From: an uncultured bacterium
Lineage (GTDB): Bacteria > Fermentibacterota > Fermentibacteria > Fermentibacterales > JCC-6
DNA: 64,000 nt
Direction: 5' to 3'
Assembly: GCA_965371785.1 (NCBI GenBank)
Contig: CBDUZS010000002.1
Location: 2,362-66,361 of the forward strand
Of the stretch, positions 2,706 to 51,793 are shown piece after piece (the stretch's first letter is position 1; each line of letters starts with the position of its first letter). The position numbers and the translations under genes were made by a program. The notes beneath the pieces are model-generated. The model did no database searches, was not told the origin of the DNA, and was given only the letters and a program-made list of their open reading frames with translations.

Positions 2706-2767
2706 TACGGAACTCCTCCTGCGAAAAACTTTGTCGGCTTACCGGACGTCGTCAGGATTATTGAGGA

Positions 2768-4380: not shown

Positions 4381-4533
4381 ATGTACCTACTCCAAGAGGA
4401 GAATCCAAATAAAGTCTGTTTATGTATGTAGATAAAGGGTAAACACATTGATCTCAAAAAAAAGACAGAGGGCTGGTTCCCGCTGATACCCTTACATATC
4501 TTCTGATGCAGTGTCCATTGAAAATGACGTTCT

Positions 4534-7163: not shown

Positions 7164-7170
7164 TACCTCG

Positions 7171-8142: not shown

Positions 8143-8148
8143 TCTTTA

Positions 8149-9003: not shown

Positions 9004-9013
9004 GATCCGATTC

Positions 9014-15572: not shown

Positions 15573-16040
15573 CCTCAGAGCACTGGATCTCACCAGCAGT
15601 ATTTTTCGCGACGTACTGAACAGGTGTTTACTATCGTGCGTTCATCCGTTATCTTCACCTCCGGCAGCACTGAGAGGTGGAAGCGTGAGCGAATGGAAGG
15701 TGAGAACGGCCCCTGGAGCCTCGGAAAAACCGGGCTGGCTGGTCGTTTCCGGTGAAAGACCGATCAGATTCGCAATCATCACAATGAACACCTGTTCCGG
15801 TCTCCTCCGGAACATGATATCGGACGGAGAATGGCAGGTCTTCAGGGAACACGACGAAGTGTCCATATCCATGCGGTTGATATGGTGCAGGAAACTCCCC
15901 ACCGCAGGCACGATACTGCTCTGTGCCCGCGAGATACCCGGAAGCACCATGTAACACTGAGGATGTCGGGGGATGTTTATGGGCTGACACACTGGCTCAG
16001 TGAACACTCCAGCCTTATCTTTCCTCCCAAGCCGGGAGGT

Positions 16041-16799
16041 ATGTTCATCAACGTTATCGACCCCACTTCAGAGGGCATAAGCCTGTTCCTTCCCGCGTAC
16101 AACGAGGAGGAAAACGTCCAGTGGATGGTTGAGAGGGCAAGGGATGCTCTCTCGGGTATAACCGACCGCTGGGAGATTATCGTTGTGGATGACGGCTCAA
16201 CGGATGGGACCGCATCGATAACGAACGCTCTCGCGAACTCGGACAAGCGCATCAGGCTGGTTTCTCACGAAACGAACAGAGGGTTTGGACAGGCTCTGAT
16301 AACCGGAATCGCTTCCTCCGTGTACGAGTGGATATTCTACACCGATTGTGACGGGCAGTTCGATCTCGACGAACTGCAGCTGGTCTGGAACGAGCGGAAA
16401 GAGGCTGATATCGTCTCCGCATTCAGGCGAAGAAGACAGGATCCGGGGATGAGGCTGTTCTATTCACTTGCCTACACCACTCTCACACTGATCATGTTCG
16501 GTAAGGGCTTCAAGGATTGCGATTCTTCCTTCAAACTCTACAGAAAGGCGATCTTCAGCCGTGTCAAACCCCGCTCGACCTGCGGAGTCGCCGATTTCGA
16601 GATTCTCACACTGGCCAGAGGGCTCGGCTACCGGGTCCGTCAGATTCCCGTTTCCCACTTTCCCCGAAGAGCTGGATCGGTATCCTTCGAATCGGTAAGG
16701 AAAGGTTTCCTCGTCTGGGTGCGCATGTCCGCTCTGCTCGAGATGTTCGTACAGCTCCTGGCCTTCAGGATCAGGGTATTTCGCGGAAAGGTGAGATGA
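16041..16799 (+). CDS. glycosyltransferase family 2, polyprenol-phosphate sugar transferase-like (Dpm1/Ppm1/ArnC-like)
   Basis: ISLFLPAYNEEENV...IIVVDDGSTDGT...DCDGQFD. The DxD and DDGS motifs are typical of GT2 polyisoprenyl-phosphate glycosyltransferases. RBS GGGAGG 3 nt upstream of ATG 16041. Confidence 0.85.
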   Translation: MFINVIDPTSEGISLFLPAYNEEENVQWMVERARDALSGITDRWEIIVVDDGSTDGTASITNALANSDKRIRLVSHETNRGFGQALITGIASSVYEWIFYTDCDGQFDLDELQLVWNERKEADIVSAFRRRRQDPGMRLFYSLAYTTLTLIMFGKGFKDCDSSFKLYRKAIFSRVKPRSTCGVADFEILTLARGLGYRVRQIPVSHFPRRAGSVSFESVRKGFLVWVRMSALLEMFVQLLAFRIRVFRGKVR

Positions 16800-18232
16800 G
16801 AAGACCGAGAGCCCTTCTCACAACTCCTCTGCCACCGCTTGAAACAGGTCTGGCGACCTATGCGATCAGGGTACTCGACGGCACGAGTGATCTGATCGAC
16901 TGGACGGTTGCTTACACTCCGGGTTCCGACCCGGGGAGCCTGCCCGCGGAAATGACATCCATCCCCGTTGCAGAACTCCATGAACCTGCCCGAATCAGAA
17001 TTTTCCAGCTCGGTAATTCACCCCACTGTTTCGACGTGCTTTCTGCCCTCTACAGGTTCGGTGGAACAGGCCTGTTCCACGAGGTCCATCTCCATCACAT
17101 GATCAGGCATTGCTGCCTTGAGAGAGGTCTTCTGCCGGACTACTCCAGAGAACTGCGGTTCGAATACGGTCCCTCAGCCGAAGCCGTGGAGAAACTCCTT
17201 TCCATACGACCATCCGACGAGGCCGAATACGATGCAAGGCTCAAGCGTTATCCCCTTATTGCAAGGGCGGTTCATGCGTGCGGCAGCCTCGTGTGTCTCA
17301 ACGGCTACGCAGCCTCCATACTTCGCGGCAGAGGCAAGATGGTTACAACGATTCGTCACCCGCTGAGCAGGCTTCCCGATCGCCTCGAATCGATGGAGAA
17401 ACCCGGAGATCCCGTCATCGGGATGGCCGGAGGGTTCCACTACGGCCGAAATCTCGAATCGGTGATCAAGGCGGTGAGCATCCTGAGGAGATCGTGTCCC
17501 GATGCGGTTCTGCTCCTCGCGGGAGGGGGTTACCCGGAGGGGCTTCCCGACTGGGTCGTCAGGGCGTCTGGCAGGCTGCCTGAAAGGGAATACCAGCAGT
17601 GGATAAGGGTAATGGACGTTGCCGTTGACATACGCCACCCACCACTTGGTGAAACATCCGGGAGTCTGCTCGAGGTGATGAGGGCAGGGGTGCCCGCGGT
17701 TGTTTCCGCATCGGGAGCCTTCAATACACTGCCATCGGATTCGGTGACAAGAGTTCCGGTTGACAACCTGGTGCACGGCACCGCTGCTTCGCTCGAACTT
17801 CTTCTTGCAAGGGATGATCTAAGGCATTCCATGTCGGAAGCATCAAAGGCATGGGCTTCGGAGCAGGGCTCGCTTGAAGCACTCCGCAAGGACTGGATTT
17901 CCCTGATCGAAGAACAGGCTTTGCAGATTGATTCCACAGCAAGGGATAGAACACTCAACAGAAGGTCTCTCTCGCCCGCATGGCACGATGCGCCCCCTGG
18001 TTTCGAGCTGGACACATCGGGTAAAGCAGTTGCCTGGCGATTCGAAGGCACTGCGACGATCGAGGGTCCGTCCGGAGCAAGGGGAGCATGGGTCACGGCA
18101 AGAGGGCGCGGTGAAATTTCGGGCAGGACACTGTCGGAAACCGCCGCAGTGTACACAACGGCAGGCTCCTCGATCACGTTCAGCGGCAGGGGAGAGGTTA
18201 CGAACATCCACTGGTTGTCGGGAGAGATGTAA
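16796..18232 (+). CDS. glycosyltransferase family 4 (GT-B fold), with long C-terminal extension
   Basis: ATG 16796 overlaps the upstream stop (ATGA). GT4-like C-terminal core (GETSGSLLEVMRAGVPAVVSASGAF). Real N-terminus is MRRPRALLTTPL... Confidence 0.7.
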   Translation: MRRPRALLTTPLPPLETGLATYAIRVLDGTSDLIDWTVAYTPGSDPGSLPAEMTSIPVAELHEPARIRIFQLGNSPHCFDVLSALYRFGGTGLFHEVHLHHMIRHCCLERGLLPDYSRELRFEYGPSAEAVEKLLSIRPSDEAEYDARLKRYPLIARAVHACGSLVCLNGYAASILRGRGKMVTTIRHPLSRLPDRLESMEKPGDPVIGMAGGFHYGRNLESVIKAVSILRRSCPDAVLLLAGGGYPEGLPDWVVRASGRLPEREYQQWIRVMDVAVDIRHPPLGETSGSLLEVMRAGVPAVVSASGAFNTLPSDSVTRVPVDNLVHGTAASLELLLARDDLRHSMSEASKAWASEQGSLEALRKDWISLIEEQALQIDSTARDRTLNRRSLSPAWHDAPPGFELDTSGKAVAWRFEGTATIEGPSGARGAWVTARGRGEISGRTLSETAAVYTTAGSSITFSGRGEVTNIHWLSGEM

Positions 18233-19848
18233 TGAAACCGGCAGGACGACGGCTCCTGGCTGCTGCCGCCATTCTACTGCTGCTCATTCCTTTCCTGATC
18301 CATTTCATATTCAATGGTGAGGATATCGCAGGAGAACTTGCGGACGAAGCGATTATCTCCGGTGATTCGGATGTGTACGATTGTGTCTGGCATTTCTGGT
18401 GGGTAGGAAAAGCGCTTCGGATGGGAGCAGACCCTCGATTCTGCCCTTTGACTTTCTATCCCGAAGGCGCAACGGTTGCGTTTCAGAATATCGGATGGCC
18501 CGATACCTGGCTCATGGCTCTGACGGGTTTATCCGAAAAGAGTCCCGTGACGGCATACAACCTGTCCATTCTGTTCGGCACGATTCTGGCAGCCTGTGGA
18601 GCCTTCTGGGCCGCAAGACAGTGGGGATTGGATACCGTCGGCTGTTTCTTTGCAGCACTTGCCCTTGCATGGCTTCCATCAAGAATAGCCCACATGGGGC
18701 AACACTATCAGATCGCTTCGCTCGGGTATCTTGCCTTCAGCCTTGGTTCGATCAGAGCCTGGTTGACGGAGGGAAAAGCCTGGCAGCTCATCCTGGTCGT
18801 GCTCTTCTCGCTGCTTGCATGCCTCGAGAGCGCATACTTTGCCATGCTGGGAGGATTCGGCCTCCTGGCAACCATACTCCTCAGCTTGAATGAGATGGAT
18901 CACAAGGCGTACAGGATATGCATGCTGGTGCCTGCTTTCCTCGCGTCAGTAATAGCTGCCGGAGCGTTCTTCATGACTTCACCAGGGCTCGGAAGTGATA
19001 CCCCGGCTCTTTCCTGGCGGGAAGCGGTGTACTGGGCTGCCGACCCTCAGGCATGGCTCCTTCCGTCTCCCTACGGCATATTCGGCAGGCTTTTGTCAAT
19101 TCCGGCCAGGTTCTCATGGATGTCGAATTCCTTTGAGGGTGTGGTTACACCCGGTCTTACACTCATGGGTATCTTCATTCTGTCGGTGGTAAAGCGTAGA
19201 AAATGGTTACTTGCGGGGCTGATCTTGATTCTGGCGCTTCTCACCCTTGGACCCGAGCTGCGTATCTTCGGCCGGCCCCGGGGGATACCTCTTCCTTACA
19301 GGCTGATCCTGCTGGCTCCTCTTCTCGAAGGAGCAAGATCTCCATCGAGGTTTGCCCTGCTTGCGGGATTCTTCATCGCACTGGAGGCCGGACGGTATTT
19401 TTCGGCGGTTCGACTGAAATGGAAGCTCGTGCTCGGCAGCTGTCTTGTTCTTGAACTGATGCTCCCTTCTCTTGCGGTTATTTCGGGTTTCATTCCGGAG
19501 GAGTACGAACGGATGGGGGAATCTGAAGGTCCCTTGCTGGAGGTTCCGTCCTCCCCGCACGTGAGAAGGTACAGTTTCTTCCAGGTATCCGACGGTCTGC
19601 CCAGATTACTGAGCTTCATGGTAAGACCCGGGAGCAGCATAATACCGGAGAATCTCACGCCGTTCCGGCTCGAGACTTCGGAAATCCCGGACCGGCAGGA
19701 TGCGCTTGCCACGGGTGCAAAGCTGATCGTCTACAACAGGTGGATGTTCTCCGATCGGGAAAGGGAGATCTTTGACTCCAGGTTTTCCCCCCTTTTCGAG
19801 GGATTCGATACCGATGACTCGCTCTGGATCTGGAGGAGCGAAGAGTGA
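18232..19848 (+). CDS. polytopic membrane protein, putative GT-C-type glycosyltransferase
   Basis: 538 aa. About 10 predicted TM helices, then a soluble C-terminal domain. Acidic first-loop motif GDSDVYDCVWHFWW. Start overlaps the upstream stop (TAATG). Confidence 0.55.
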   Translation: MKPAGRRLLAAAAILLLLIPFLIHFIFNGEDIAGELADEAIISGDSDVYDCVWHFWWVGKALRMGADPRFCPLTFYPEGATVAFQNIGWPDTWLMALTGLSEKSPVTAYNLSILFGTILAACGAFWAARQWGLDTVGCFFAALALAWLPSRIAHMGQHYQIASLGYLAFSLGSIRAWLTEGKAWQLILVVLFSLLACLESAYFAMLGGFGLLATILLSLNEMDHKAYRICMLVPAFLASVIAAGAFFMTSPGLGSDTPALSWREAVYWAADPQAWLLPSPYGIFGRLLSIPARFSWMSNSFEGVVTPGLTLMGIFILSVVKRRKWLLAGLILILALLTLGPELRIFGRPRGIPLPYRLILLAPLLEGARSPSRFALLAGFFIALEAGRYFSAVRLKWKLVLGSCLVLELMLPSLAVISGFIPEEYERMGESEGPLLEVPSSPHVRRYSFFQVSDGLPRLLSFMVRPGSSIIPENLTPFRLETSEIPDRQDALATGAKLIVYNRWMFSDREREIFDSRFSPLFEGFDTDDSLWIWRSEE

Positions 19849-20978
19849 GTGAAATGCTCGATGTCGTACTGGACATGACTCCTGCCGCTCACAGCAGGGG
19901 AGGTGTGGGCAAATACCTGACACTGCTTGCGTCCAGCCTTCACGCCCACTCGCGGGAGGAAGGGCTGAGATTTCGCACCCTCGATATTCCCGCTGCCAGA
20001 CCGGGGACGCCTCCGCTGCCTGCCGAGCCGGATCTGACCCTCGGTAATCCGCTCTACCTCGGGATTCCCCTTCTGAGGCGGCTGCCGATAAGATATTCGC
20101 GGGAATTGCGTTCGAGAGGCAGGAGGCTGAGTACTCTTCTGGGGAAGAAGGGAATTTTCCACCACAGCGGGGTCCAGCCAGTCTGTCCCCGGGGATGGAC
20201 ATCCGTGCTGACAACGTTCGATCTCTCCGCAATTCAACATGAGAAATGGCATACGCTGGAGACCGTCTCGTACGGAGCCAGGGAGAAGCAGCTGACGGAG
20301 GAAGGCTCCAGGCTGATTGCCATCTCCCGATGGGCAGCCGGCGAGGCGGAATCATACTTTTCCCTTGAAAGCGGGACGGTAGGCATCGCCGGCGGCGCTG
20401 CGGGACCAATCTTCGTGCCGGGTGAACCAGACCCGGAATTCCTTGCGGAAAACGGTCTCGAAAGGGAACGATTCGTTCTGCACGTGGGCAGCTTCGTTCC
20501 GAGAAAGAACATTCCCTTCCTTCTTGAGGTTTATTCAGCCTGCGTCGATGACGGTTTCGACTATCCCCTCGTAATGGTGGGAGCAGAGGAGTGGGGAGAA
20601 CTGGATATCGATACAGGTCTTCCGTGGCTGCGAATCTTTTCGGGGATATCTGACGAAGACCTCCTGAGCCTTTACAGGGGAGCCAGAGCCGTTCTGCTCC
20701 CCAGCAGGTATGAGGGCCTCGGTTTCCCGGCACTCGAAGCCATGGCCTGCGGCAGACCTCTTCTCTGCAGCAATGCTGCAGCGCTTCCCGAAACCGTGGG
20801 AGACGGTGGGCTGCTGCTCGATCCGGATGACGCTCACGCCTGGCGCAGAGCCATATCGCACCTCGAGGACGATGAGCACCTGTCGATGCTCAGGAAAATG
20901 TCTGAAAGCGTTCACCGACGAACCTGGGAAGAGGTCGCATCGAATGCCGCGGCGTTCTACAGGAGCATATCCGAATGA
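19845..20978 (+). CDS. glycosyltransferase family 4
   Basis: C-terminal GT4 core (VGSFVPRKNIPFLLEVY...LLPSRYEGLGFPALEAMACGRPLLCSNAAALPE). GTG start overlaps the upstream stop. Confidence 0.8.
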   Translation: MSEMLDVVLDMTPAAHSRGGVGKYLTLLASSLHAHSREEGLRFRTLDIPAARPGTPPLPAEPDLTLGNPLYLGIPLLRRLPIRYSRELRSRGRRLSTLLGKKGIFHHSGVQPVCPRGWTSVLTTFDLSAIQHEKWHTLETVSYGAREKQLTEEGSRLIAISRWAAGEAESYFSLESGTVGIAGGAAGPIFVPGEPDPEFLAENGLERERFVLHVGSFVPRKNIPFLLEVYSACVDDGFDYPLVMVGAEEWGELDIDTGLPWLRIFSGISDEDLLSLYRGARAVLLPSRYEGLGFPALEAMACGRPLLCSNAAALPETVGDGGLLLDPDDAHAWRRAISHLEDDEHLSMLRKMSESVHRRTWEEVASNAAAFYRSISE

Positions 20979-22219
20979 AAATACTCCATCTCGTCCACAG
21001 GACCTGGCCGTATCACGGCGGCGCGGAGCGTTACGTCTGGGAGCATGCCGTTGCTGCTCAGCGATGGGGGCACGAGAGCACGGTGTACTCGACGGATGCA
21101 TGGGATATGTCCTGGCTTGTCTCGAACCGGGGCAAATCAGTCGATTCACCCGAGTCGTACAGAGACGGAGTCCGAATCGTGCGATTCAGAGTCCTTCATC
21201 CTCCTCTCCAGAACCTTCTGCGGGGAACGCTGCGGAGGCTGATGCCCTGTGGAGAGGACAGGTTCTTCTACCCTAACCCTTTCCTGCCCGGACTCCACTC
21301 GCGGCTGGGGAGAGACAGGGAGTTCGATTTCGTCCACGCGAACGCGATGCCTTTCCTTCTGTGGGAAGGGTTCGGATACGCTTCGAAAAGGGGAGCAGGT
21401 CTCGCGGCGGTTCCCCACGGGAATCTCGGTGAACGCTTCAGAAGAACGGCGGAGATTCGCTACCTTGCGGGATGTCAACCGGAAATCCTTCGGAAGAGCA
21501 GTGTAGTCGTAGCTCAGAATCGTTTCGAGAGAGATGTCTACGTCGACCTCGGTGTGGACCCGGAGAGGGTTCTCGTTCTGGGCAGCGGAGTGGATCCCCG
21601 GGAATTCGAGGGGGCTTCGAGGATTGCCGGAAGGAGAAGGCTGGGTATCGCGGAGGATGCGAGAGTAATCCTCACACTGACTGCGCTCTCGCGAGAGAAG
21701 GGAACGATTGCCCTCCTGAAATCCAGCCTGGATCTCTGGAGGAACGGAATGGACTTCACACTCGTTCTTGCCGGACCGAGAATGCCGGATTTCGATGTTT
21801 TTCTGCGAAGCATCGCAGAGCAGATCCCGCCGGGCAGGCTGATTCTTACGGGAATGGTGAAACGTGAGACAAGGGCTGATCTCATAGCGGCAGCAGACGT
21901 CTTTGCCCTGCTGTCGCGGCTTGATTGCTTCGGCATAGTTCTACTCGAAGCCTGGGTTTGCGGGTTACCCGTAGTGGGATGCTGGGCCGGCGCCATGCCG
22001 GATCTGATCGCAGACGGGGAGACAGGATTTCTCGTCGGTTTCGATGATACTGAGACGCTCGCATCCAGGCTGGGTGTCCTCATCGACTCGGAAGGTCTCA
22101 GAAGGGAGATGGGGAAAAAGGGGAAACGTCTCGTCGAAGGCAGATACACCTGGGACAGGGTTACCGACAGGTTCTACAGTCGAATCGCAGGATGCCTGAC
22201 GAAAGAGGGGATACGGTGA
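20975..22219 (+). CDS. glycosyltransferase family 4
   Basis: MKILHLVHRTWPYHGGAERYV N-terminus. C-terminal LSRLDCFGIVLLEAWVCGLPVVGCWAGAMPDLI...GETGFLV (EX7E-like). ATGA overlap with the upstream gene. Confidence 0.8.
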   Translation: MKILHLVHRTWPYHGGAERYVWEHAVAAQRWGHESTVYSTDAWDMSWLVSNRGKSVDSPESYRDGVRIVRFRVLHPPLQNLLRGTLRRLMPCGEDRFFYPNPFLPGLHSRLGRDREFDFVHANAMPFLLWEGFGYASKRGAGLAAVPHGNLGERFRRTAEIRYLAGCQPEILRKSSVVVAQNRFERDVYVDLGVDPERVLVLGSGVDPREFEGASRIAGRRRLGIAEDARVILTLTALSREKGTIALLKSSLDLWRNGMDFTLVLAGPRMPDFDVFLRSIAEQIPPGRLILTGMVKRETRADLIAAADVFALLSRLDCFGIVLLEAWVCGLPVVGCWAGAMPDLIADGETGFLVGFDDTETLASRLGVLIDSEGLRREMGKKGKRLVEGRYTWDRVTDRFYSRIAGCLTKEGIR

Positions 22220-23472
22220 GCAGGAGTGTAACGGTTGTCTCGGTTCTCTGGAATTCAGCCGGTCTGATTCCCGATCTTGCAGACACCCTTCGCGGCCTAT
22301 CCGATGAGTGCGATATCATCCTGGTAGACAACAATTCAACCGATGACACCGCAGATCTGGCAGCCAGTCTCATCCCGGATGCCAGAATCAAAAGAATGTC
22401 TCAAAACGGAGGTTTCGGCTGGGGCAACAACAGAGCGCTCGAAGAGGTTACCACACCCTTCATCCTCTTGTTGAACAGCGATGCAAGGATGGAACCCGAA
22501 TCACTGAAGAGCCTGCTGTCGGTAATGGACCGATACGAGAAAACAGCAGCCGTACAGCCAACTCTGAAGATATGGGACTGGCCGCTGCTCTCTGCGGGCA
22601 AGGGTGTATCCATGACCCGTTACGGAGAAGGTTATGACATTAATTTCCTTCACTTCTCTTCCGGCGCCGCGAAGGGAGATCCGGTACGCGTTCCGGGGGT
22701 AACCGCAGCGGTCTCACTGTGGAGAACGGCTGCACTCCAGGAGGTTTCCGGTTTTGACGAGGAAATATTCATGTACTTCGAGGACGTCGATCTGTCCATG
22801 AGACTGGCATCTGCTGGCTGGCGGTTCAGCCTTGCGACGGCAGCGACCGCGCTTCACAGAGCGGGAGCATCCAGTTCGAGGGAGAGGGCAGCGAAATGGG
22901 AACTGGAGTCATCCGTCTACCTGACGCGAAGGTACTTCGGATCCCGCTCATGTACCCTTCCTCCGTACTGGTGGAAGCGGGAATTGAGGATTCGGGCCCA
23001 CGGAATTATCAGACGCATTCCCTGGAAATGGAGAATTGGAGCCGTTAGAAGAGCATGCTCCATTCCGTGCACACCTGTCCGGCTGTCAGGTGAAGTGCTT
23101 TCCATGCTGCAGTCCAGACCGATGGAGCTTCCTCTGACCCGCAGTGCGCTTCGAGATAATCTGGATCCGGACGGCGTTCTGGAGGCCGGTCCAGGTTTCT
23201 CGAAGAGGGATGGACGGCTCTTCATTACACAGTATGGCTGTATACTCTCGAAGGCCAGGGGAGTGATATCGCTGGAACTGGTCACGCCTGACCGCTGCAG
23301 GAGCGGCTCCATCAGGAACGAGAGGGGAGATGTCCTCACACGATGGAACAGCATGCCCGGGGAAGTGGTTCATCTGAAAACAGGAGTTGCCCCTGCCGGT
23401 TCAAAGTTCTATCTCTCAATGGATGAGTACGATGCCACTGCGGAGGTAAAAAAGATTGTTCACCGTCGCTGA
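22216..23472 (+). CDS. glycosyltransferase family 2
   Basis: VSVLWNSAGLIPD...IILVDNNSTDDT...LLLNSDARMEP... A DxD-type GT2 fold. GTG start overlaps the upstream stop (GTGA). Confidence 0.75.
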   Translation: MSRSVTVVSVLWNSAGLIPDLADTLRGLSDECDIILVDNNSTDDTADLAASLIPDARIKRMSQNGGFGWGNNRALEEVTTPFILLLNSDARMEPESLKSLLSVMDRYEKTAAVQPTLKIWDWPLLSAGKGVSMTRYGEGYDINFLHFSSGAAKGDPVRVPGVTAAVSLWRTAALQEVSGFDEEIFMYFEDVDLSMRLASAGWRFSLATAATALHRAGASSSRERAAKWELESSVYLTRRYFGSRSCTLPPYWWKRELRIRAHGIIRRIPWKWRIGAVRRACSIPCTPVRLSGEVLSMLQSRPMELPLTRSALRDNLDPDGVLEAGPGFSKRDGRLFITQYGCILSKARGVISLELVTPDRCRSGSIRNERGDVLTRWNSMPGEVVHLKTGVAPAGSKFYLSMDEYDATAEVKKIVHRR

Positions 23473-23473
23473 C

Positions 23474-24274
23474 ATGAGGAAAAGCTCAAAGCTGCATGTC
23501 AGGCTGGGAGCCTGGCTCATCCTGTCGATACTCCTTCTGCTCACCAGGAGCTTTTCATGGCTTTCCGCCGGACTGATCGCCGGTGCCCTTCCGCCTGCTC
23601 TCCAGCTCCGGGAGAATCTATTCATGAGGGTATGTCTGCTCCTTCTGGCGATCGCTGCCGTTCTGCCCCTCGATTCACAGTCATCAGCGCTTGTGATGGC
23701 GTCAGGAATGTTGCTCGTATTGAACGGTAAATCTCTGCTCATCAGAGTAACGGGACTATGTTCGATCCTGCTCGCGGCGCTGCAGGGTTCGGTTAGCGGT
23801 CTGATGTTCATCCTGATCCTTTCTGCGATTTCAGTGTTTCCCCCGAGCAGGAAGTGGAGACTCGCCACGATGGCGCCTGGGCTGATCCTGTGCCTCGTAA
23901 TAGCCGGTCTGCCCGATGCGCGCCTTCATCCGGAACGGGTAGCACAGGAACGGCATATCGAGGATCGTCTTGCATGGACTTACGTTCCGGCCCTGACTGC
24001 GGGATCACCGGCAGTCCTCTTCAGAACTTCGTCCACGGACGGGGGAGTCCTGCACGTACCGGTGGATGCGGGAGGTGTCAGGGATGATCTGCCCGTCGGC
24101 ACAATCCTGACGGGGGAGCAGAGCATCACATTCGGAGCAGGGAGGGACACTCTGAACGTTCCTTTCAACGCCGGCGATACCGTTCGTGTGTGGATATCCA
24201 GGCCATGGGCTGCGTTCGAGCATACGATTATCCACTTCGGGCATTGCTGGACATCACCGAAGGAAGGATCATGA
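23474..24274 (+). CDS. hypothetical membrane protein
   Basis: Four hydrophobic segments at the N-terminus (LGAWLILSILLLL..., VCLLLLAIAAVL..., LCSILLAAL..., APGLILCLVIAGL), then a ~100-aa soluble tail. ATG 23474 is 1 nt after the upstream stop. Confidence 0.45.
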   Translation: MRKSSKLHVRLGAWLILSILLLLTRSFSWLSAGLIAGALPPALQLRENLFMRVCLLLLAIAAVLPLDSQSSALVMASGMLLVLNGKSLLIRVTGLCSILLAALQGSVSGLMFILILSAISVFPPSRKWRLATMAPGLILCLVIAGLPDARLHPERVAQERHIEDRLAWTYVPALTAGSPAVLFRTSSTDGGVLHVPVDAGGVRDDLPVGTILTGEQSITFGAGRDTLNVPFNAGDTVRVWISRPWAAFEHTIIHFGHCWTSPKEGS

Positions 24275-26358
24275 GACTGACTGCACTCCTCCGCAGGTAC
24301 CAGGGGGCAGTCTTCCCCCTTTTCGCGGGAATCCTCGTGTTCGCAGTCTGGAGAATCACCGGAATGCCGGCTCCCGGCACCCATGGAAGGCTTGTGCCGC
24401 TCGCATGGGCTCTCCTGTCCCTTGTATCCGGGAGGCTCAGGGTTCACCGGCTCTCCGTACTGTTCCTGACGATGTTCGTCCTGCTCTCTGTCTTCTGGCA
24501 TACCGGCCGGGTTGTCGAGCTGCTTGCGGTTTCCTTTGCTGTCCTGGGGATGCTTCCGGCGATGCTGTCACTGGCCGGAAAAGGTATCTGGGGTCCCGCA
24601 AGGGCTGCGGTCCCTCTCTTCCTGCTCAGCGTTCTGCTGGTTCCATTCGAAGGAGACGAACCTCATTACGGCGCCCTGACAGAGGATCTTGCCGGGGGCG
24701 GATCGGAAGTATTCGGTGAGCCAGGAGGACAGACTGGTGACATGGAGGGGGGGGAATCCCACCACACGAAGGCTTTTCCCTTGCTGCTTCTACCGGGATA
24801 CCCTCTCGGGGTAATCGGTGTGAGAACGGTTTCCTTTCTGATGGCGCTGGCATCTTCCGTTCTCCTGGCCCTCATCTACAGAAGGGCGAATGTCCCTTCC
24901 GGCGGTAAACTCGCGCTCATGGGCATGGTTCTCCTGCCCGGGGCAGGCATACTCGGTCTCCTGTATCCTGGCTGGCTTGCACTGGGACTTTTTTGCGCAG
25001 GGGCGTTATGGGGAATGAAAGGCAGGCTTGGGCTTCCCATCGTAATCCTGGTCACACTAGTACTCACAGCCATCAAATTCCGTTTCTTCTTTCTGGGGGC
25101 GGGACTCTTCCTCGTATGGTTCATCAGGCTCCCCTCTCAATGGAAGTTCAGGGCACTCGCCCTCGTCATCGGGGGAGCCGCGATGGTGCTCGTCGCTGAT
25201 TTCTTCCTGCTCGGCGGCAATCTCTTCTGGAACCGGTACGGTAACACCGGTGTGATCATGCTGGTCTGGACTAACATCACGCAAAGGACAGGTTCACTCG
25301 TTCTCGCACCGTTTGCAGCCCTGCTCGATATCGAAGCGGGTTTGATCTGGAAAGCTCCGTGGCTGCTTCTGTCCTTTGCCGGTATTCCAGAACTTCGAAG
25401 AAGGTTTCCAGACCTCTTCCTTACCCTTGGACTCCCATCCCTCATTTACATCGCGGTTCTCTTCCTCTGGATGCCTGCCGGGTGGCACGGTCTGCCCACC
25501 CCTCCTGGAAGGTTCTTCATTCCCCTGCTGCCTTTCATGCTCGCGTCTGCCTCCATGCTGCTCCACAAACCATCGGCGAAGGTGTTGCTGTGGCTATCTC
25601 TGATGGTCACCGCCCTCTGCATAGCCGACCCATGGCTGAGGTTCAACCACGCTGACGGTACCGACGCTCTGGTTAAACTTTTCTCCGGCGGATCCCACTC
25701 CCTGACCGCATGGCTTCCTACACAGGTAAGGCCGGCCCTGCCGCCTTTCCTGATCTGGGGAGCCTTCTTCTCATCCCTCATAATTCTGGTGAAGAGGACG
25801 AGGTGGGGAGTCTTATTTGCGCTTCTGGCAGCATCCATAGCAGTCGGATCCGTTGTCAGAACTGCTCCCTCTTCGTGGGAAGCCGAGGATCTGGGAGCCT
25901 GCGAAAGGACCGGATGTGTCATCTACCCTTCTGACGTTGACCCCGATCGCAGGAACTACTGGCTTTTCGACAGACAGCTGATGCTCCATCTCGAGCATCC
26001 ATCTGACCGCATAACTCTTGATATTCCTCCGGGAAACGGTGATTCCGTGACGGTAGCGATCGTTTTGAGAGGTTTCGCCTCCGATACCGAATGTCCGGGT
26101 ATAGTTATCTCGTGCGGAAGCAGTACGTTCACTGCATTCCTCGATTCGGAAACACGACCGCCTCCTTCCTGGGTGAGCATGTTCAGGCGGGGCAGAGAGA
26201 TAGACAGAATCCCCGAAAATCTTGCCGATACGACCCTGTCGTGTGTGCTGTGCAATGAGCAGGGCAATCCACTAGTCATAGAGCCTGTACCATGGGCAGA
26301 TGACCAGGGGCTCCTGTTCGGGCTCTATCTGGACAGGATAGAGGTTCGAGTGAGATGA
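24271..26358 (+). CDS. polytopic membrane protein, GT-C-type glycosyltransferase-like (PMT/ArnT-like acidic loop)
   Basis: About 13 TM helices. First extracytoplasmic loop carries EGDEPHYGALTEDLAGG, reminiscent of the DE catalytic motif of GT39/GT83 enzymes. C-terminal ~180-aa soluble domain. ATGA overlap with the upstream gene. Confidence 0.55.
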   Translation: MRLTALLRRYQGAVFPLFAGILVFAVWRITGMPAPGTHGRLVPLAWALLSLVSGRLRVHRLSVLFLTMFVLLSVFWHTGRVVELLAVSFAVLGMLPAMLSLAGKGIWGPARAAVPLFLLSVLLVPFEGDEPHYGALTEDLAGGGSEVFGEPGGQTGDMEGGESHHTKAFPLLLLPGYPLGVIGVRTVSFLMALASSVLLALIYRRANVPSGGKLALMGMVLLPGAGILGLLYPGWLALGLFCAGALWGMKGRLGLPIVILVTLVLTAIKFRFFFLGAGLFLVWFIRLPSQWKFRALALVIGGAAMVLVADFFLLGGNLFWNRYGNTGVIMLVWTNITQRTGSLVLAPFAALLDIEAGLIWKAPWLLLSFAGIPELRRRFPDLFLTLGLPSLIYIAVLFLWMPAGWHGLPTPPGRFFIPLLPFMLASASMLLHKPSAKVLLWLSLMVTALCIADPWLRFNHADGTDALVKLFSGGSHSLTAWLPTQVRPALPPFLIWGAFFSSLIILVKRTRWGVLFALLAASIAVGSVVRTAPSSWEAEDLGACERTGCVIYPSDVDPDRRNYWLFDRQLMLHLEHPSDRITLDIPPGNGDSVTVAIVLRGFASDTECPGIVISCGSSTFTAFLDSETRPPPSWVSMFRRGREIDRIPENLADTTLSCVLCNEQGNPLVIEPVPWADDQGLLFGLYLDRIEVRVR

Positions 26359-27173
26359 AGCTCTCGGTAGTGGTTCCATCCCGAAACGGACTGTGCTTTC
26401 TCCGGAAGTACCTCCCCGCAGTACTGGCAGACCTGGGAAACGGGGGAGAGCTGATCGTGGTGGACGATTGCTCCGATGACGAGACGGCAGTCAAAGGACC
26501 GGTCGAATTTCCGGAAGTCAGATTCATCACAAGGCAGGGCGAGCCCGGATTCTGTCATGCGGTGAACATCGGAATGCGTGAGTCTTCGGGAGACATGCTC
26601 CTGCTGCTGAACAATGATGTTCTTCTACCCGAGGGGGCTCTTTCGACACTTGCAGAGGAGTTGCATAAGGCTCCACAGTACTACTGCGCAGCAGTTCCCC
26701 GGATAAGGCGGCCCGACGGCTCGGACGAGAGTAAGGTGAACTACATGTTCAGCAGGGGTCTGGCATCTACTTCGCTCGGCGGTGACGGTGTTCCGTATCC
26801 ATCGGGAGCCTGCAGCCTCTGGAGGCGTACCTCATGGGAGTCACTCGGCGGTCTGGATACGATCTATGCACCCATATACTGGGAGGATGCCGACATCGGA
26901 GCCAGAGCATTCAAGCTCGGGATGAAGGTTCTCAGAATACCGGGAGTCGAGGTACAGCATGAACATGCAGCAACCATGCGGCTGTCACCCGAATCGGACT
27001 CTCTACGGGAGAGAAACAGATTCATATTCATGCACAGGCACTTCAGAACGCCCCCTGCCAGACTCTCGACTGCATTCTGGCTGCCTCTGCACCTGCTGAA
27101 GGCTGCCTTGACGGGGAACACAGCATTCCTGAAAGGTTACAGGAGCTTTCTCTTGATGAAAGGGCTGCTGTGA
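26355..27173 (+). CDS. glycosyltransferase family 2
   Basis: MKLSVVVPSRNGLCFLRKYL...LIVVDDCSDDET...LLLNNDVLLPEG. ATGA overlap upstream and GTGA overlap downstream. Confidence 0.8.
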   Translation: MKLSVVVPSRNGLCFLRKYLPAVLADLGNGGELIVVDDCSDDETAVKGPVEFPEVRFITRQGEPGFCHAVNIGMRESSGDMLLLLNNDVLLPEGALSTLAEELHKAPQYYCAAVPRIRRPDGSDESKVNYMFSRGLASTSLGGDGVPYPSGACSLWRRTSWESLGGLDTIYAPIYWEDADIGARAFKLGMKVLRIPGVEVQHEHAATMRLSPESDSLRERNRFIFMHRHFRTPPARLSTAFWLPLHLLKAALTGNTAFLKGYRSFLLMKGLL

Positions 27174-28840
27174 AGAAGGCCAGGTTCGTACTGGGAGTAG
27201 AGCTGCTCACCGGCATGGTTGCCGGAGCTGCAGCGCTTTCCGCTGTTGCTTCACTGCTGATAACACTTCTCGTCATTCAGGATTCTGCGAACAGATCCAG
27301 CGCTCTGGCCATGTACACGGTGTCGTCCATTGCCCTGAACCTTCCCCCTGATCCCGGATACGAAGATCTGAGGGGGGCCGTACACGGTCTTGTTCTCGGA
27401 GAAACAATAGACGCAGTCGTTGTCGCGGACAGCCTTTTCAACCCGCTTCTAAGTGTTGAGCCCCTTTCCTCGGGAATACTTCCGCTCAGGCAGGACGATT
27501 GGGTCTTCTACAGTATCCCCGATAGTCCGCTGATGGTAGGTGTAATACCGGTGAACCCGCTTTCATCCGGTTTCAACATGCTCCTGATGACGGGTCTGGC
27601 GGTGCTTGCGGCCGGTCTGACCATAATAGCCATATTCACCCCCGGATACCTGAAGAGGCGGGTCCTGGCCCCTCTGAAGGCCATTCTCGGCGAAGCCGAC
27701 AGGCTCGAGGAGGGAGCAGGTAGAAATCCTGACACCGCGCGGGCATCTTTTCATCGTGTTGTCGAACTCCTGGAAGACAGGGACAGGGAACTGGAGCTGC
27801 TGAGGAAAGAAGCCGAGAAAAGGGCTGATGCTGCCGAATCCAGAGCGGGAGCTCTACTCTCCGCCATCCGTTCGTCCGTACTCGCTCTGGACGATGAGGG
27901 AAACCTTGTCTTCTTCAACGACCCGGCGAGAGAACTCTTCGATCTGGTTCCCGATGACAGGGGCGCCGGGTTCCCACTCGACAGGTCGGAGACCGGGTCG
28001 AGAATGAAGAGAGTACTGAACACATTCGAGGGAACAACACTCGAGACCGAGATAGAAATTCCCTCCGATGCGGGAAAAAGAATACTGAACGTCTCCATAT
28101 CATGTTCCGATACCGGAGAAACGGTTATCCTGCTCACGGACGTGACAAGGCTTGCCGAACTGGAGAGAAGGATAGCCGAGGAAACCGCAATGGCTGATCT
28201 GGGTTCGGTGTCAGCAGGCATTTCCCACGAAGTCGGAAACACACTCTGTGCTCTTTCGGGCTTCATAGAGCTGCTTGGAAAGGGACACAGCGACGAGCGG
28301 ACGATGTCAATACTCTCAGAGGCCAAAGTGGAAATCGACTCCGCACGGCAGACGGTAGAGTCGTTCAAAGCCCTTGCCGGATCCGGGAAACCTGTTTCGA
28401 CGGTCGTACCGGTGGAAGAACTGCATGAACTTGCCAGAGAACTATGCGAAGAGATGGGTGACCGGTGCGGGGTATCGACGGAGCATATTTCAGGGGCGGT
28501 TTCGGTTGACCGTCTACTGATGAGCAGGTGCATCAGCAACCTGCTCAGGAACTCAATCGAAGCGGATCCGGACAGCAGAATAGAGGTTAACCTCTCGTGC
28601 ACTGCAGGGGAGTTCATCCTTCTCGTCGAAGACGATGGCCCGGGCTTTGCAGAGGACACCGAAATCCTTTTCAGACCGCTCTATTCGACGAAACGCAGCG
28701 AAGGCAACATGGGGATCGGTCTCACCATAACCAGAAGGATAATAGCAGCATTTGGAGGGAAGGTGACAGCCTGCCGAAAGGCCGATGGCAAGGGCGCAAT
28801 CGTGAGCATCAGGCTTCCCCTCGTTAAGGAGACGAATTGA
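27170..28840 (+). CDS. sensor histidine kinase (2 TM, periplasmic loop, PAS-like, HisKA, HATPase_c)
   Basis: H-box MADLGSVSAGISHEVGNTL. ATP-lid LVEDDGPGF...GIGLTI. Two TM segments flank a ~130-aa extracytoplasmic domain. Confidence 0.85.
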   Translation: MKKARFVLGVELLTGMVAGAAALSAVASLLITLLVIQDSANRSSALAMYTVSSIALNLPPDPGYEDLRGAVHGLVLGETIDAVVVADSLFNPLLSVEPLSSGILPLRQDDWVFYSIPDSPLMVGVIPVNPLSSGFNMLLMTGLAVLAAGLTIIAIFTPGYLKRRVLAPLKAILGEADRLEEGAGRNPDTARASFHRVVELLEDRDRELELLRKEAEKRADAAESRAGALLSAIRSSVLALDDEGNLVFFNDPARELFDLVPDDRGAGFPLDRSETGSRMKRVLNTFEGTTLETEIEIPSDAGKRILNVSISCSDTGETVILLTDVTRLAELERRIAEETAMADLGSVSAGISHEVGNTLCALSGFIELLGKGHSDERTMSILSEAKVEIDSARQTVESFKALAGSGKPVSTVVPVEELHELARELCEEMGDRCGVSTEHISGAVSVDRLLMSRCISNLLRNSIEADPDSRIEVNLSCTAGEFILLVEDDGPGFAEDTEILFRPLYSTKRSEGNMGIGLTITRRIIAAFGGKVTACRKADGKGAIVSIRLPLVKETN

Positions 28841-30138
28841 ACAGGATACTGCTCGTCGAGGACAAGCGGGGCATGAGGGTAATGCTGAGCACCGCTCTCA
28901 CCGAGGATGGATGGGAAGTGACTGCCGTTCCCAGCGGCGAACGTGCGGTCCGGGAAATAAGTTCGACCGAGTTCCCATTCGACATGATTCTCACCGATGT
29001 GTGTCTGCCGGGCTCCATCGACGGGAACGAAGTACTCAGTCATTCACGCGGGGCAACGCCATCCACTCCCGTGATACTCATGACTGCATTCGGAACGATA
29101 GAGATGGCTGTGTCGGCGATGAAACGCGGTGCGCGTGACTTCATCACGAAACCGTTCGAGCTCGAGAACCTTCTCAGGCTCGTAAGACGTCACGCAGCAT
29201 CTCATGAGAACAGCATGATAGGCACTTCCCGGTCTCTGTCCCGCGAGGTTGACAGGGCGATGAAGGGAGCGGTCACGGATCTGAACATGCTGATTCTGGG
29301 CGAAAGCGGAACCGGAAAAGAGCTCCTTGCAAGAATGGTCCATTCCGAAAGCCGCTGGAAGGATGGACCTTTCATACCCGTAAACTGTGCGGCAATTCCC
29401 GCTAATCTCATGGAAAGTGAATTATTCGGCGCAGAGAAGGGGGCTTACACCGGTGCGGATGCCAGGCGTATCGGCAGATTCGAACTTGCGGACGGCGGCA
29501 CGATTCTCCTCGATGAAGTGGGAGACCTTGCACCCTCTCTCCAGGGGAAGCTGCTTCGTATTCTCCAGGAGAAGGAGTACACGAGAGTTGGCGGAACCGA
29601 GCTCCTCCACGCAAAAGTAAGGGTTATCTCCGCAAGCAACAGGGATCTCACAGCTTCGATTGAATCGGGACTGTTCCGGAAGGATCTCTACTACAGGATC
29701 AGTGAGTTTCCTGTTACCCTCCCGCCCCTGAGGAAAAGAGCGGAAGACATCCCCGAACTCGCAAAGTATTTCCTGAGACAGTGCGGCTACGACAACCTGA
29801 CCATTTCGGAACAGGCCATGTCCTTGCTGGCAAGGTACGACTGGCCAGGGAACGTAAGGGAACTGCGGAACATCGTTCTCAGAGCAGCCGCTCTTGCGCA
29901 GCAGGATGTTATCGATTCCACTCTCCTCGAGATAGGAGACGGCTCCGCCCCGGAAGAGGGTCTTCTCCAGGAAGCGAACAGGGTAGCGAGAGAGCGTGAG
30001 AGGGAGATGATTCTCTCCACTCTTCTGGAAACCGATGGCAACAGGAAAAAAGCCGCGGAGATTCTCAAGGTCAGCTACCGCACACTGCTCTCGAGAATCA
30101 AGGAACTCAGGCTGGGAACGGATACCGGGAAGGGTTAA
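28837..30138 (+). CDS. sigma-54-dependent response regulator (NtrC family: REC, AAA+ sigma54-activation, Fis-type HTH)
   Basis: REC with D in ILTDVCLPG. GESGTGKELLARMVH Walker A. ESELFGAEKGAYTGA GAFTGA motif. C-terminal HTH (KKAAEILKVSYRTLLSRIKEL). TTG start overlaps the kinase stop. Confidence 0.9.
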   Translation: MNRILLVEDKRGMRVMLSTALTEDGWEVTAVPSGERAVREISSTEFPFDMILTDVCLPGSIDGNEVLSHSRGATPSTPVILMTAFGTIEMAVSAMKRGARDFITKPFELENLLRLVRRHAASHENSMIGTSRSLSREVDRAMKGAVTDLNMLILGESGTGKELLARMVHSESRWKDGPFIPVNCAAIPANLMESELFGAEKGAYTGADARRIGRFELADGGTILLDEVGDLAPSLQGKLLRILQEKEYTRVGGTELLHAKVRVISASNRDLTASIESGLFRKDLYYRISEFPVTLPPLRKRAEDIPELAKYFLRQCGYDNLTISEQAMSLLARYDWPGNVRELRNIVLRAAALAQQDVIDSTLLEIGDGSAPEEGLLQEANRVAREREREMILSTLLETDGNRKKAAEILKVSYRTLLSRIKELRLGTDTGKG

Positions 30139-30357: not shown

Positions 30358-30900
30358 ATGAACATCGATATCAGCGGAAGGCACTTCGATCTCACGGATG
30401 CGCTGAAGACTCACGTAGAAGATAAAATCTCTGCTTTCGAAAGATTCTACGATGGTATAGATGATGTGCACGTCATCCTGGAGTTCACTGCCGGGTTGAA
30501 CCATGCACATATCTCTGTCAGGGGCGACAGGCTAAGGCTGGACTCCAGATCGAAATCGCACGACATGTACTTCGCGATAGACGAATGCGTATCCAGCCTC
30601 GAAAGACAGATCAGGAGGTTCAAGGACAGAATTCACGGTCACCCTCACAGGGGCGGAGGCAACGGCAAAAAAGGCACTTACTACGTTCCCGTGGAAATGT
30701 CAGAACTCAACAAAATCCTTCTCGTAGAGAACGGCACACTGCTCCCGAGGTTTACCACGAACAACGCGATGACCGAATTCGAGGTCGACGGGGATGACTA
30801 CCTGGTTTTCTTCAACACCGAGACCAACAGCGTGAATGCGGTGTACAGAACTCCCGGCGGTACGAGTCAGGTCGTCGAACTCATGGAAGCGGGAGTGTAG
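30358..30900 (+). CDS. hpf: ribosome hibernation-promoting factor, long form
   Basis: MNIDISGRHFDLTDALKTHVEDKISAFERFYDG... C-terminal dimerisation domain (YLVFFNTETNSVNAVYRTPGGTSQVVEL). ATG 30358 is preceded by GAAGGGAGAG. The longer track ORF start (30208) lacks an RBS. Confidence 0.85.
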   Translation: MNIDISGRHFDLTDALKTHVEDKISAFERFYDGIDDVHVILEFTAGLNHAHISVRGDRLRLDSRSKSHDMYFAIDECVSSLERQIRRFKDRIHGHPHRGGGNGKKGTYYVPVEMSELNKILLVENGTLLPRFTTNNAMTEFEVDGDDYLVFFNTETNSVNAVYRTPGGTSQVVELMEAGV

Positions 30901-31130
30901 CCCCACTGAGCGATCTCTATCCCGATTCCGAGAACGTAACCGCGGCCAGCATTCTGAAAGCGCTGCGAAAAAAACTGAAGCTCAGCTCCGCCATAGAAGA
31001 CACCGGCTTCGACAGGCTGATAACCTCTCCCGACATCAGCCGGCCGGGCCTCTGTCTTACCGGCTACACTCACAACTTTTTATACGAGCGGATACAGATA
31101 TTCGGCGAGACCGAGATCACCCTCCTGAAC

Positions 31131-31874: not shown

Positions 31875-31877
31875 TCG

Positions 31878-32150
31878 GTGTTCAGCACGACTGTGACAGT
31901 GCCGAACAGGCTTGGCATACATGCAAGGCCGGCGGCACAGATAGTCAAGCTCGCATCAACGTTCCTGAGCGAGATATCCCTTGTCGTCGGACACGATCAG
32001 GTAAACGCCAAGAGTATCATGGGGGTCATGACCCTCGCAGCGGGCGCAGGCACTGAGGTCGGCATCAACGCTGACGGTTCGGACGAGCGGAAGGCAGTCG
32101 ATTCACTGGCCGATCTCTTCGAAACAGGCTTCGGGGAAGAGATGGTCTGA
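31878..32150 (+). CDS. ptsH: phosphocarrier protein HPr
   Basis: 90 aa. His15 context GIHARPA. Regulatory Ser46 context KSIMGVM. GTG start. Confidence 0.85.
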   Translation: MFSTTVTVPNRLGIHARPAAQIVKLASTFLSEISLVVGHDQVNAKSIMGVMTLAAGAGTEVGINADGSDERKAVDSLADLFETGFGEEMV

Positions 32151-35953: not shown

Positions 35954-36054
35954 AGGTTCTGCACGTCTACAAGGACGTTCATCCGATCGTAAGGGGTGGC
36001 ATCGAACGCTACATCCACGATCTGGGCGGCTTCTTCGTTTCCAGGGGACACGAG

Positions 36055-51752: not shown

Positions 51753-51793
51753 CAGGGAAGCGAGGACATACCATCTACACGCGATTGACCGGA

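Follow-up and report, generated by a model that had tools for sequence, protein, structure and literature searches.

Positions 16041-30138 on the plus strand of the window, the whole 64-kb stretch of DNA analysed here, hold a real, tightly packed 11-gene operon that is conserved across Fermentibacterota. It is probably specific to this phylum (Candidatus Aegiribacteria lineage) and devoted to the two-compartment assembly of a lipid-linked envelope glycan, with glycosyltransferases on both membrane faces and a sensor kinase and sigma-54 activator at the 3′ end.

A compact gene block conserved across the phylum

Based on the open reading frame listing and start-codon choice, 11 consecutive genes (g1 to g11) were assigned to this region. 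The earlier note had counted twelve genes, yet named eleven classes, which is the correct number, and each of these classes was verified by domain searches. The features, including the leader that separates g1 from mutS, are as follows.

15573..16040, + strand: leader between mutS and g1, 468 nt
16041..16799, + strand: g1, GT2, polyprenyl-phosphate sugar synthase-like, 252 aa (PF00535, E 2e-28)
16796..18232, + strand: g2, divergent GT-B/GT4-like protein with a C-terminal extension, 478 aa
18232..19848, + strand: g3, membrane glycosyltransferase with predicted GT-C fold, 538 aa
19845..20978, + strand: g4, GT4 glycosyltransferase, 377 aa (Glycos_transf_1, E 4e-24)
20975..22219, + strand: g5, GT4 glycosyltransferase, 414 aa (Glycos_transf_1, E 5e-25, plus Glyco_transf_4)
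22216..23472, + strand: g6, GT2 with a C-terminal extension of ~170 aa, 418 aa (PF00535, E 8e-18)
23474..24274, + strand: g7, membrane protein with ~5 TM helices and a periplasmic C-terminal beta domain, 266 aa
24271..26358, + strand: g8, membrane glycosyltransferase with predicted GT-C fold and a C-terminal CBM6/35/36-like domain, 695 aa
26355..27173, + strand: g9, GT2 glycosyltransferase and variable cluster member, 272 aa (PF00535, E 8e-16)
27170..28840, + strand: g10, sensor histidine kinase, 556 aa (HisKA and HATPase_c)
28837..30138, + strand: g11, NtrC-family sigma-54 enhancer-binding response regulator, 433 aa

Stop and start codons overlap at nine of the ten gene junctions, in agreement with the overlaps at almost every junction described earlier. 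Eight overlap by 4 nt, as ATGA (g1/g2), GTGA (g5/g6 and g9/g10) or TTGA (g10/g11), while g2/g3 share a single nucleotide (TAATG) and g6/g7 are separated by a 1-nt spacer. However, unrelated genes elsewhere in the window are also often joined by −1 and −4 overlaps, such as integrase/GT-C at 43287, Dpy19-like/dapF at 50937 and GT9/polA at 55602; on its own, therefore, an overlap says little about functional coupling. Because such overlaps are a genome-wide habit, the “tight stoichiometric coupling” that had been read from them was an over-reading, and relatives lacking g9 have 23–95 nt between g8 and the kinase (approximate start calls; −1 in one locus). Of the proposed single polycistronic unit, the compact and conserved unit stands, and we infer the co-transcription of its 11 genes.

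Synteny comparison found the same gene order in ~25 independent Fermentibacterota loci, belonging to Aegiribacteria, Fermentibacteraceae and Sabulitectum, at 25–69% protein identity, which argues that the arrangement is not a chance run of open reading frames. The order g1-g8-(g9)-kinase-activator was kept in every Fermentibacterota locus with enough sequence, and the kinase/activator pair remained attached to the glycosyltransferase block even where both flanks differed: upstream lies mutS, a hybrid kinase with AhpC, or a minus-strand gene, and downstream hpf or gatDE. Besides the window, g9 was present in four distinct relatives (L004/L027, L005/L033, L028 and L029), in all of which the kinase start overlaps it, and was absent from all other loci spanning the g8-kinase junction; the gap before the kinase never exceeded ~95 nt. 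Two relatives (L012 and L019) have no g3 and many have no g9, so the pathway appears to tolerate loss of these genes. Nowhere outside Fermentibacterota was the full cluster found, and the remote g8 relatives followed beyond the phylum had unrelated neighbourhoods. A gene order conserved within a single phylum may be inherited rather than maintained by function, and the clearly unrelated neighbours mutS and hpf-hprK are conserved in gene order as well. An hpf-hprK-ptsH-ptsI module neighbours the operon, and an MsbA-type ABC exporter, which scores best as MsbA, lies with a GT9 gene 4–6 kb upstream.

As the earlier note had stated for the cluster, the layout is that of neither an O-antigen nor a capsule locus with the usual parts: Pfam searches found no Wzx, Wzy, Wzz or initiating PGT domain in the cluster genes, nor in the ORFs of at least 200 aa across the 64 kb or the smaller flanking ORFs that were searched. 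The 64 kb likewise yielded no GtrA domain.

Cytosolic-type glycosyltransferases and GT-C membrane proteins

The product of g1 has a GT-A catalytic domain most similar to the ArnC/GtrB/DPM1-type class. Its top NCBIfam matches were ArnC, dolichyl-P hexose transferase, AglJ and PpgS, all under the equivalog cut-offs (71.8 bits against a cut-off of 529 for the ArnC model), and its best solved relative in the PDB was ArnC (E 7e-18, residues 12–240 of 252), followed by GtrB and DPMS, which bears out its earlier assignment to the polyprenyl-phosphate type. The C-terminus carries a single hydrophobic segment (residues 223–241) and lacks the TM hairpin of ArnC and GtrB.

Among the remaining cytosolic-type enzymes, g2 gave a weak GT1/GT4 match, to Glycos_transf_1 and Glyco_trans_1_4 (E ~4e-7, residues 201–352). 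The nearest solved relatives were MshA and PimA for g4, and BshA, MshA, PimB′ and PimA for g5; the two proteins resemble PimA/PimB′ no better than MshA/BshA, and their NCBIfam matches to GlcN-PG synthase fell far under the cut-off. MftF, EpsD and rhamnosyltransferase-like matches were obtained for g6, all under the cut-offs. The C-terminal extensions of g2 and g6 were considered as a common element, which was rejected for want of mutual similarity.

None of the membrane proteins g3, g7 and g8 belongs to a Pfam or NCBIfam family, and profile searches of the three against PDB sequences returned only noise. Confident predicted models nevertheless revealed a multi-pass membrane core with a GT-C fold in both g3 and g8, so that the GT-C-like nature proposed for the two large membrane proteins is borne out by structure models. 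In fold comparison, the arabinosyl- and mannosyltransferases AftD, AftA, ArnT and ALG12 scored about as well against them as the protein-glycosylating GT-Cs, and profile searches detected no sequence-level homology to the mycobacterial GT-C families. In g3, D47 is invariant and D45 nearly so, both within a GDSDVY motif directly after TM1 in the first extracytoplasmic loop, and in g8, D129 and E130 are invariant within a GDEP motif of a predicted periplasmic loop. By regular-expression search, the WWDxG motif occurred in 0 of 42 g3-family and 0 of 14 g8-family sequences. The fold, together with the adjacent ArnC-like g1, suggests that g3 and g8 would use a lipid-phosphate-linked sugar donor.

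Distant relatives of g3 match YfhO (PF09586) and PF10131, the latter matched by only two of 42 g3 homologues with the 2025 Pfam copy; precomputed PF19830 matches of g3 homologues were not reproduced with that copy and were set aside. The g8 core defines a sparse superfamily of ~450 representatives without a Pfam model. The motifs GGxRD and RxxxxFxH are conserved in g7; even a 21-sequence profile of this protein matched nothing in Pfam, NCBIfam or the PDB. A weak hhalign match covered the last TM helix and CBM-like domain of g8, but at a probability of 22% it was too weak to name g7, and a Wzy_C match in three of 21 g7 homologues was insignificant (E 0.021). Hydropathy and charge bias place the C-terminal domains of both g7 and g8 in the periplasm.

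The kinase/activator pair and promoter searches

The best NCBIfam match of the kinase g10 was AtoS, under the cut-off, and two TM segments flank an extracytoplasmic segment of ~100 aa (residues 38–137). The activator g11 comprises Response_reg, Sigma54_activat (E 5e-64), AAA_lid_14 and HTH_8 domains, has GAYTGA as its GAFTGA-type loop, as read in the translation, and scored under the equivalog cut-offs of the NtrC, AtoC, PrsR and ZraR models. PrsK/PrsR resembles g10/g11 as a tandem transmembrane histidine kinase and NtrC-type activator with glycosyltransferase or EPS genes usually nearby, although g11 reached 323.7 bits against the PrsR model TIGR02915 (cut-off 502.6) and g10 only 54.2 bits against the PrsK model TIGR02916 (cut-off 300), and, in difference from the PEP-CTERM/EpsH system, the window showed neither PEP-CTERM proteins nor EpsH or PrsT. 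PrsK/PrsR kinase and sigma-54 activator pairs are usually found close to glycosyltransferase genes, with their sigma-54 sites located at other genes (PMC1569441), and a general association links sigma-54 to genes for envelope glycans (PMC3162934). The attachment of the regulators to the 3′ end holds in all relatives despite differing flanks, whereas its description as unusual is weakened by the PrsK/PrsR precedents.

That these are the operon's “own” regulators received no support from promoter searches. Pattern search of the leader (15573-16040) for a −24 GG/−12 GC promoter gave no match at up to two mismatches, weighted scans of the leaders of the window and four relatives found nothing, and a sigma-54 promoter scan of 33 loci found none upstream of g1. 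Recurrent −24/−12 matches elsewhere in the loci were rejected as by-products of conserved codons in coding sequence, tracing to HANAMP antisense in g5 and GIHVA in mutS, and a minus-strand sigma-54-like match at 61208 falls within a gene for a lipoprotein phosphoesterase. In the leader, neither an Rfam family nor an ORF shared with relatives was found. It contains the palindrome GAACA-N2-TGTT twice, at a spacing of 168 nt; the palindrome is enriched in the window but absent from relatives, and was discarded. The window as a whole yielded no sigma-54 promoter, and no rpoN gene is present in it.

A proposed two-compartment pathway and its alternatives

The sugar donors, the acceptor, the order of steps and any regulatory link are what we infer in the following pathway. 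On the cytoplasmic face, the GT-B/GT4 enzymes g2, g4 and g5 and the GT2 enzymes g6 and g9 would extend a lipid-linked primer from nucleotide sugars, and in parallel g1 would attach one sugar to polyprenyl phosphate in the manner of ArnC, GtrB and DPM1. A further component would carry out flipping to the periplasmic face; neither a flippase nor a primer-forming enzyme for the pathway was identified among the genes searched. On the periplasmic face, g3 and g8 would add sugars from the lipid-phosphate donor, and the CBM-like domain of g8, possibly with the periplasmic domain of g7, may hold the growing glycan in a way resembling EmbC and AftD in mycobacterial arabinan synthesis. The kinase and activator, presumably co-transcribed with the other genes, could link an envelope or periplasmic signal to sigma-54 promoters elsewhere rather than before g1, as in PrsK/PrsR.

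The nearest known systems each share part of this design. The mycobacterial and corynebacterial PIM/LM/LAM and arabinogalactan pathways combine PimA/PimB′ GT4 enzymes, the GT2 Ppm1 and the GT-C enzymes PimE, MptA, EmbC and AftA-D, of which EmbC and AftD contain CBMs; here, by contrast, the host is a diderm FCB-group phylum rather than Actinobacteria, and all genes stand in one operon ending in a sigma-54 two-component system. O-antigen glucosylation by GtrA/GtrB/GtrV and teichoic acid glycosylation by CsbB/YfhO likewise use a polyprenyl-P-sugar GT2 followed by GT-C transfer outside the membrane, and g1 matches GtrB sll0501. Here, no GtrA-type flippase was found, with g7, of ~5 TM helices, matching no family, and the operon has five further cytosolic glycosyltransferases and a second GT-C enzyme, so it appears to be more than a decoration module. 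The lipid A modification locus arnBCADTEF with pmrCAB differs in that PmrA is OmpR-type and not a sigma-54 activator, in that GT4 and GT2 enzymes for chain building are missing from the Arn pathway, and in the TM hairpin of ArnC that g1 lacks.

It seems rather unlikely that the kinase and activator are passengers, held by inherited order and read-through, that regulate something unrelated such as hpf-hprK-ptsH-ptsI or nitrogen/carbon genes while the glycan pathway is constitutive. The missing −24/−12 promoter upstream of g1 in the window and relatives would fit this, as would the 23–95 nt gap before the kinase in most relatives, the conserved order of the unrelated mutS and hpf-hprK, the overlaps that join unrelated genes elsewhere in the genome, and the generic NtrC/AtoC-like character of the activator. 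Nevertheless, in every locus the pair remains next to g8 or g9 despite rearranged flanks, including the insertion of gatDE between the activator and hpf, the kinase start overlaps g9 wherever g9 is present, and the kinase has a periplasmic sensor segment.

We consider it improbable that the region is a conventional locus for O-antigen, capsule or EPS, with Wzx/Wzy (or an ABC transporter) and the initiating PGT encoded elsewhere and the GT-C proteins serving Gtr-like side-branch decoration. The gene for a PGT such as WecA often lies apart from the glycan locus, the exporter and GT9 gene lie close upstream, and g1 paired with a GT-C protein follows the scheme of GtrB/GtrV and CsbB/YfhO; yet no Wzx, Wzy, Wzz, PGT or GtrA domain was found in the 64 kb, the exporter scores best as MsbA, and the two large GT-Cs, one with a CBM, keep fixed operon positions across the phylum, which argues for core rather than accessory roles. 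Nor is protein glycosylation favoured, in which the cytosolic glycosyltransferases build a lipid-linked donor and g3 and/or g8 transfer the sugar or oligosaccharide to periplasmic or surface proteins in an OST- or PMT-like manner. This earlier suggestion is equally improbable: WWDxG occurs in no member of either GT-C family, AftD, AftA, ArnT and ALG12 score about equally well, g8 bears a CBM-like domain and not TPR or MIR, and the operon has neither a PGT nor a PglK-type flippase.

The two-compartment lipid-linked glycan pathway is the reading that we prefer. A more speculative version, which we regard as unlikely, is a glycerolipid-anchored, LAM-like lipoglycan made without PGT or Wzx/Wzy and extended in the periplasm by two new GT-C families, where the kinase would monitor the product or the condition of the envelope and govern a sigma-54 surface-protein regulon; if true, a diderm phylum would have independently evolved a lipoglycan system that monitors itself.

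The operon overturns no established view, but is one of the most conserved multi-gene blocks of Fermentibacterota, an uncultured FCB-group phylum of sediments and digesters with a so far undescribed cell envelope. Two GT-C families within it go unrecognised by current profile libraries. As a compact, testable case of a glycan pathway with both cytosolic and periplasmic steps and a physically attached sigma-54 two-component system, it is useful for annotating GT-C enzymes and for asking how envelope glycan synthesis is sensed.

Gene layout and junctions of the operon

The run of consecutive plus-strand genes described in the earlier note at 16041-30138 is real, but once the ORFs are listed and their start codons inspected it consists of 11 genes, not the 12 counted there, and the note itself named 11 classes.

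Genes of the putative envelope-glycan operon (window positions)
g1, 16041-16799, +, GT2, polyprenyl-phosphate sugar synthase-like
g2, 16796-18232, +, weak GT-B/GT4 relative
g3, 18232-19848, +, membrane protein, GT-C family (membrane glycosyltransferase fold)
g4, 19845-20978, +, GT4
g5, 20975-22219, +, GT4
g6, 22216-23472, +, GT2
g7, 23474-24274, +, membrane protein without family match
g8, 24271-26358, +, membrane protein, GT-C family with a domain resembling a carbohydrate-binding module (CBM)
g9, 26355-27173, +, GT2
g10, 27170-28840, +, HisKA/HATPase_c kinase
g11, 28837-30138, +, sigma-54 activator

Overlapping stop and start codons were indeed found at almost every junction, with a 4-nt overlap (ATGA, GTGA or TTGA) at eight and a 1-nt overlap (TAATG) at one, while a single spacer base separates the genes at the remaining one. 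Since overlapping junctions are also frequent between unrelated genes in this genome, the stoichiometric coupling previously read from them is not established. The 468-nt leader between mutS and g1 contained no Rfam family and no conserved small ORF. It carries two copies of the palindrome GAACA-N2-TGTT (15618-15629 and 15786-15797, 168 nt apart) and GAACA occurs six times against 1.4 expected; the palindrome was not found in the leaders of relatives.

Glycosyltransferases, membrane proteins and the proposed pathway

Pfam searches returned the glycosyltransferase classes named earlier, GT2 for g1, g6 and g9 and GT4 for g4 and g5, together with a weak GT-B/GT4 match for g2 (E about 4e-7). By sequence, g1 resembles polyprenyl-phosphate sugar synthases: its top NCBIfam matches were ArnC, dolichyl-P hexose transferase, PpgS and AglJ, all far under every equivalog cut-off, its best solved relatives were ArnC (E 7e-18, residues 12-240 of 252), GtrB and DPMS, and its C-terminus bears a single hydrophobic segment. 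The closest relatives of g4 and g5 were MshA, BshA, PimA and PimB', matches that do not fix the acceptor.

None of the membrane proteins g3, g7 and g8 matched a Pfam or NCBIfam family. A word-indexed search of 5.8 billion proteins found homologues of g8 in only 14 clusters, all from Fermentibacteria where named, and an AlphaFold2 model built from their alignment reached a pLDDT of 83. D129 and E130 (GDEP) are invariant and lie in a loop after five TM helices that is predicted to be periplasmic. Exhaustive HMMER searching gave about 27 full-length representatives and a wider set of 457 at E 1e-3 or better, which share only core residues 125-558. In a sample of ten such remote relatives, hosted by other uncultured groups, no recognised GT-C domain was found and some ended in TPR or CBM60 modules; both neighbourhoods inspected were unrelated gene contexts. 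For g3 (model pLDDT 91.8), about 60 homologues were found in Fermentibacteria, with distant matches extending to YfhO/PF10131-type proteins, and a conserved GDSDVY motif directly follows TM1. Precomputed tables place PF19830 (DUF6311) on most g3 homologues (P0017-P0071), whereas direct hmmscan of 42 members against 2025 Pfam-A models gave no PF19830 match, and PF10131 for two only. The g7 protein, with about five predicted TM helices, a predicted periplasmic domain of about 115 residues and GGxRD and RxxxxFxH motifs, matched no family or solved structure, and its profile matched the last helix and CBM-like domain of g8 only weakly. That domain of g8 spans residues 535-695 approximately.

The best-supported reading is that the operon assembles a lipid-linked envelope glycan in two compartments. 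In this scheme the cytosolic GT4 and GT2 enzymes would use nucleotide sugars to lengthen a primer, g1 would provide the polyprenyl-P-sugar, g3 and g8 would add sugars in the periplasm and the CBM-like domain of g8 may hold the glycan acceptor. The mycobacterial LM/LAM and arabinogalactan pathways follow the same logic, as do GtrB/GtrV and CsbB/YfhO on a smaller scale. A protein glycosylation system, to which the fold matches to AglB, STT3 and Pmt4 point, is unlikely, given that the WWDxG oligosaccharyltransferase motif is missing from both the g3 and g8 families and that a CBM is present instead of a TPR domain. We consider it similarly improbable that this is an ordinary O-antigen or EPS locus with Wzx, Wzy and an initiating phosphoglycosyltransferase (PGT) encoded elsewhere; as the earlier note had stated for the operon, no Wzx, Wzy, Wzz or PGT domain (Bac_transf, Glycos_transf_4) was found in the cluster, nor was one found in the rest of the 64 kb, and GtrA domains were absent from both. 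The earlier observation itself was confirmed, and its interpretation is supported in part.

Surrounding genes

At a distance of 4-6 kb, the operon is preceded by a GT9 gene and by one encoding an MsbA-like ABC exporter.

Other features of the window
1104-6828, CotH-kinase protein with PKD domains; DUF5916 protein; gingipain-like C25 peptidase with T9SS C-terminal sorting domain
30358-33922, hpf, hprK, ptsH and ptsI, directly after the sigma-54 activator
33922-37047, RmlA-long/GlmU-like sugar-1-phosphate nucleotidyltransferase, overlapping the ptsI stop, then two more GT4 genes
38080-40154, small Ras/Arf-like GTPase (200 aa) and a 490-aa gene without family, with one-base overlap
43287-46301, TMEM260-like protein, 1004 aa (PF11028, E 2e-32); start overlaps XerC/D-like integrase gene
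48652-50940, 762-aa protein weakly matching Dpy19 (E 4e-5); dapF comes next
51794-51866, tRNA gene (Rfam, 67 bits)

The nucleotidyltransferase and two GT4 genes are candidates for supplying or extending the glycan proposed above, and the genes at 1104-6828 are consistent with an FCB-group diderm having type IX secretion. The TMEM260-like and Dpy19-matching genes are two more large GT-C-type genes outside the operon, so that the window holds at least four GT-C-like genes. Because the tRNA gene lies within it, the mechanically called ORF 51749-52501 is probably not a gene.

Conservation of the locus and the kinase-activator pair

With each species represented by a single genome, a scan recovered 28 loci carrying g8; wherever the organism was named, it belonged to Candidatus Aegiribacteria, Fermentibacteria, Fermentibacteraceae or Sabulitectum. 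Every locus of sufficient length showed the order g1-g2-g3-g4-g5-g6-g7-g8-(g9)-kinase-activator. The g9 gene is carried by the window and four distinct relatives (L004/L027, L005/L033, L028 and L029) and is missing from the other loci spanning the g8-kinase junction; g3 is absent from L012 and L019, about 1.8 kb with two small minus-strand genes was inserted between g4 and g5 in L001 (L001/L017 3870-6750), and about 3 kb between g7 and g8 in L025 (about 6930-10000). The flanks vary: the block is preceded by mutS, by a minus-strand gene or by a hybrid kinase together with AhpC and a flavin reductase, and it is followed by hpf either immediately or, in most relatives, with gatDE in between. The kinase always comes next after g8 or g9, overlapping g9 wherever g9 exists and starting 23-95 nt past g8 elsewhere (L008 reads -1; start codons approximated).

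The regulator classes assigned earlier also held: g10 is a HisKA/HATPase_c kinase, with two predicted TM segments on either side of a stretch of about 100 residues predicted to lie outside, and g11 combines receiver, Sigma54_activat (E 5e-64) and HTH_8 domains, with a GAYTGA loop read in translation. The activator is a generic NtrC/AtoC/PrsR-like protein, under all equivalog cut-offs. No rpoN was found in the window; hpf, hprK, ptsH and ptsI are the usual rpoN neighbours in many bacteria. No -24/-12 sigma-54 promoter was found in the leaders of the window or its relatives. Between the g11 stop and hpf there is a promoter-like site. Recurrent sigma-54-like matches across the loci were rejected as promoters, being side effects of conserved codons: the near-consensus TGGCATTGCATTTGCA lies on the minus strand, opposite the HANAMP codons conserved in g5 (L002, L005, L007, L008, L028, L032, L033 and others), and a second motif follows the GIHVA codons of mutS. 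Such coding by-products could mislead promoter scans.

Very probably, one transcript covers the kinase, the activator and the glycosyltransferase block, and the retention of the pair with that block through rearrangements favours a functional tie. That they are passenger regulators beside the glycan block is a doubtful though somewhat more serious alternative, for which the lack of a promoter and a gene order inherited across the phylum, unrelated neighbours included, speak. Under the favoured functional tie, as no sigma-54 promoter was found at the operon, the targets of the activator probably lie elsewhere, by analogy with PrsK/PrsR (PMC1569441); sigma-54 is generally associated with envelope glycan genes (PMC3162934). 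The locus is built of known enzyme classes in a conserved and phylum-specific arrangement, which includes two unrecognised GT-C families and a membrane protein without family.
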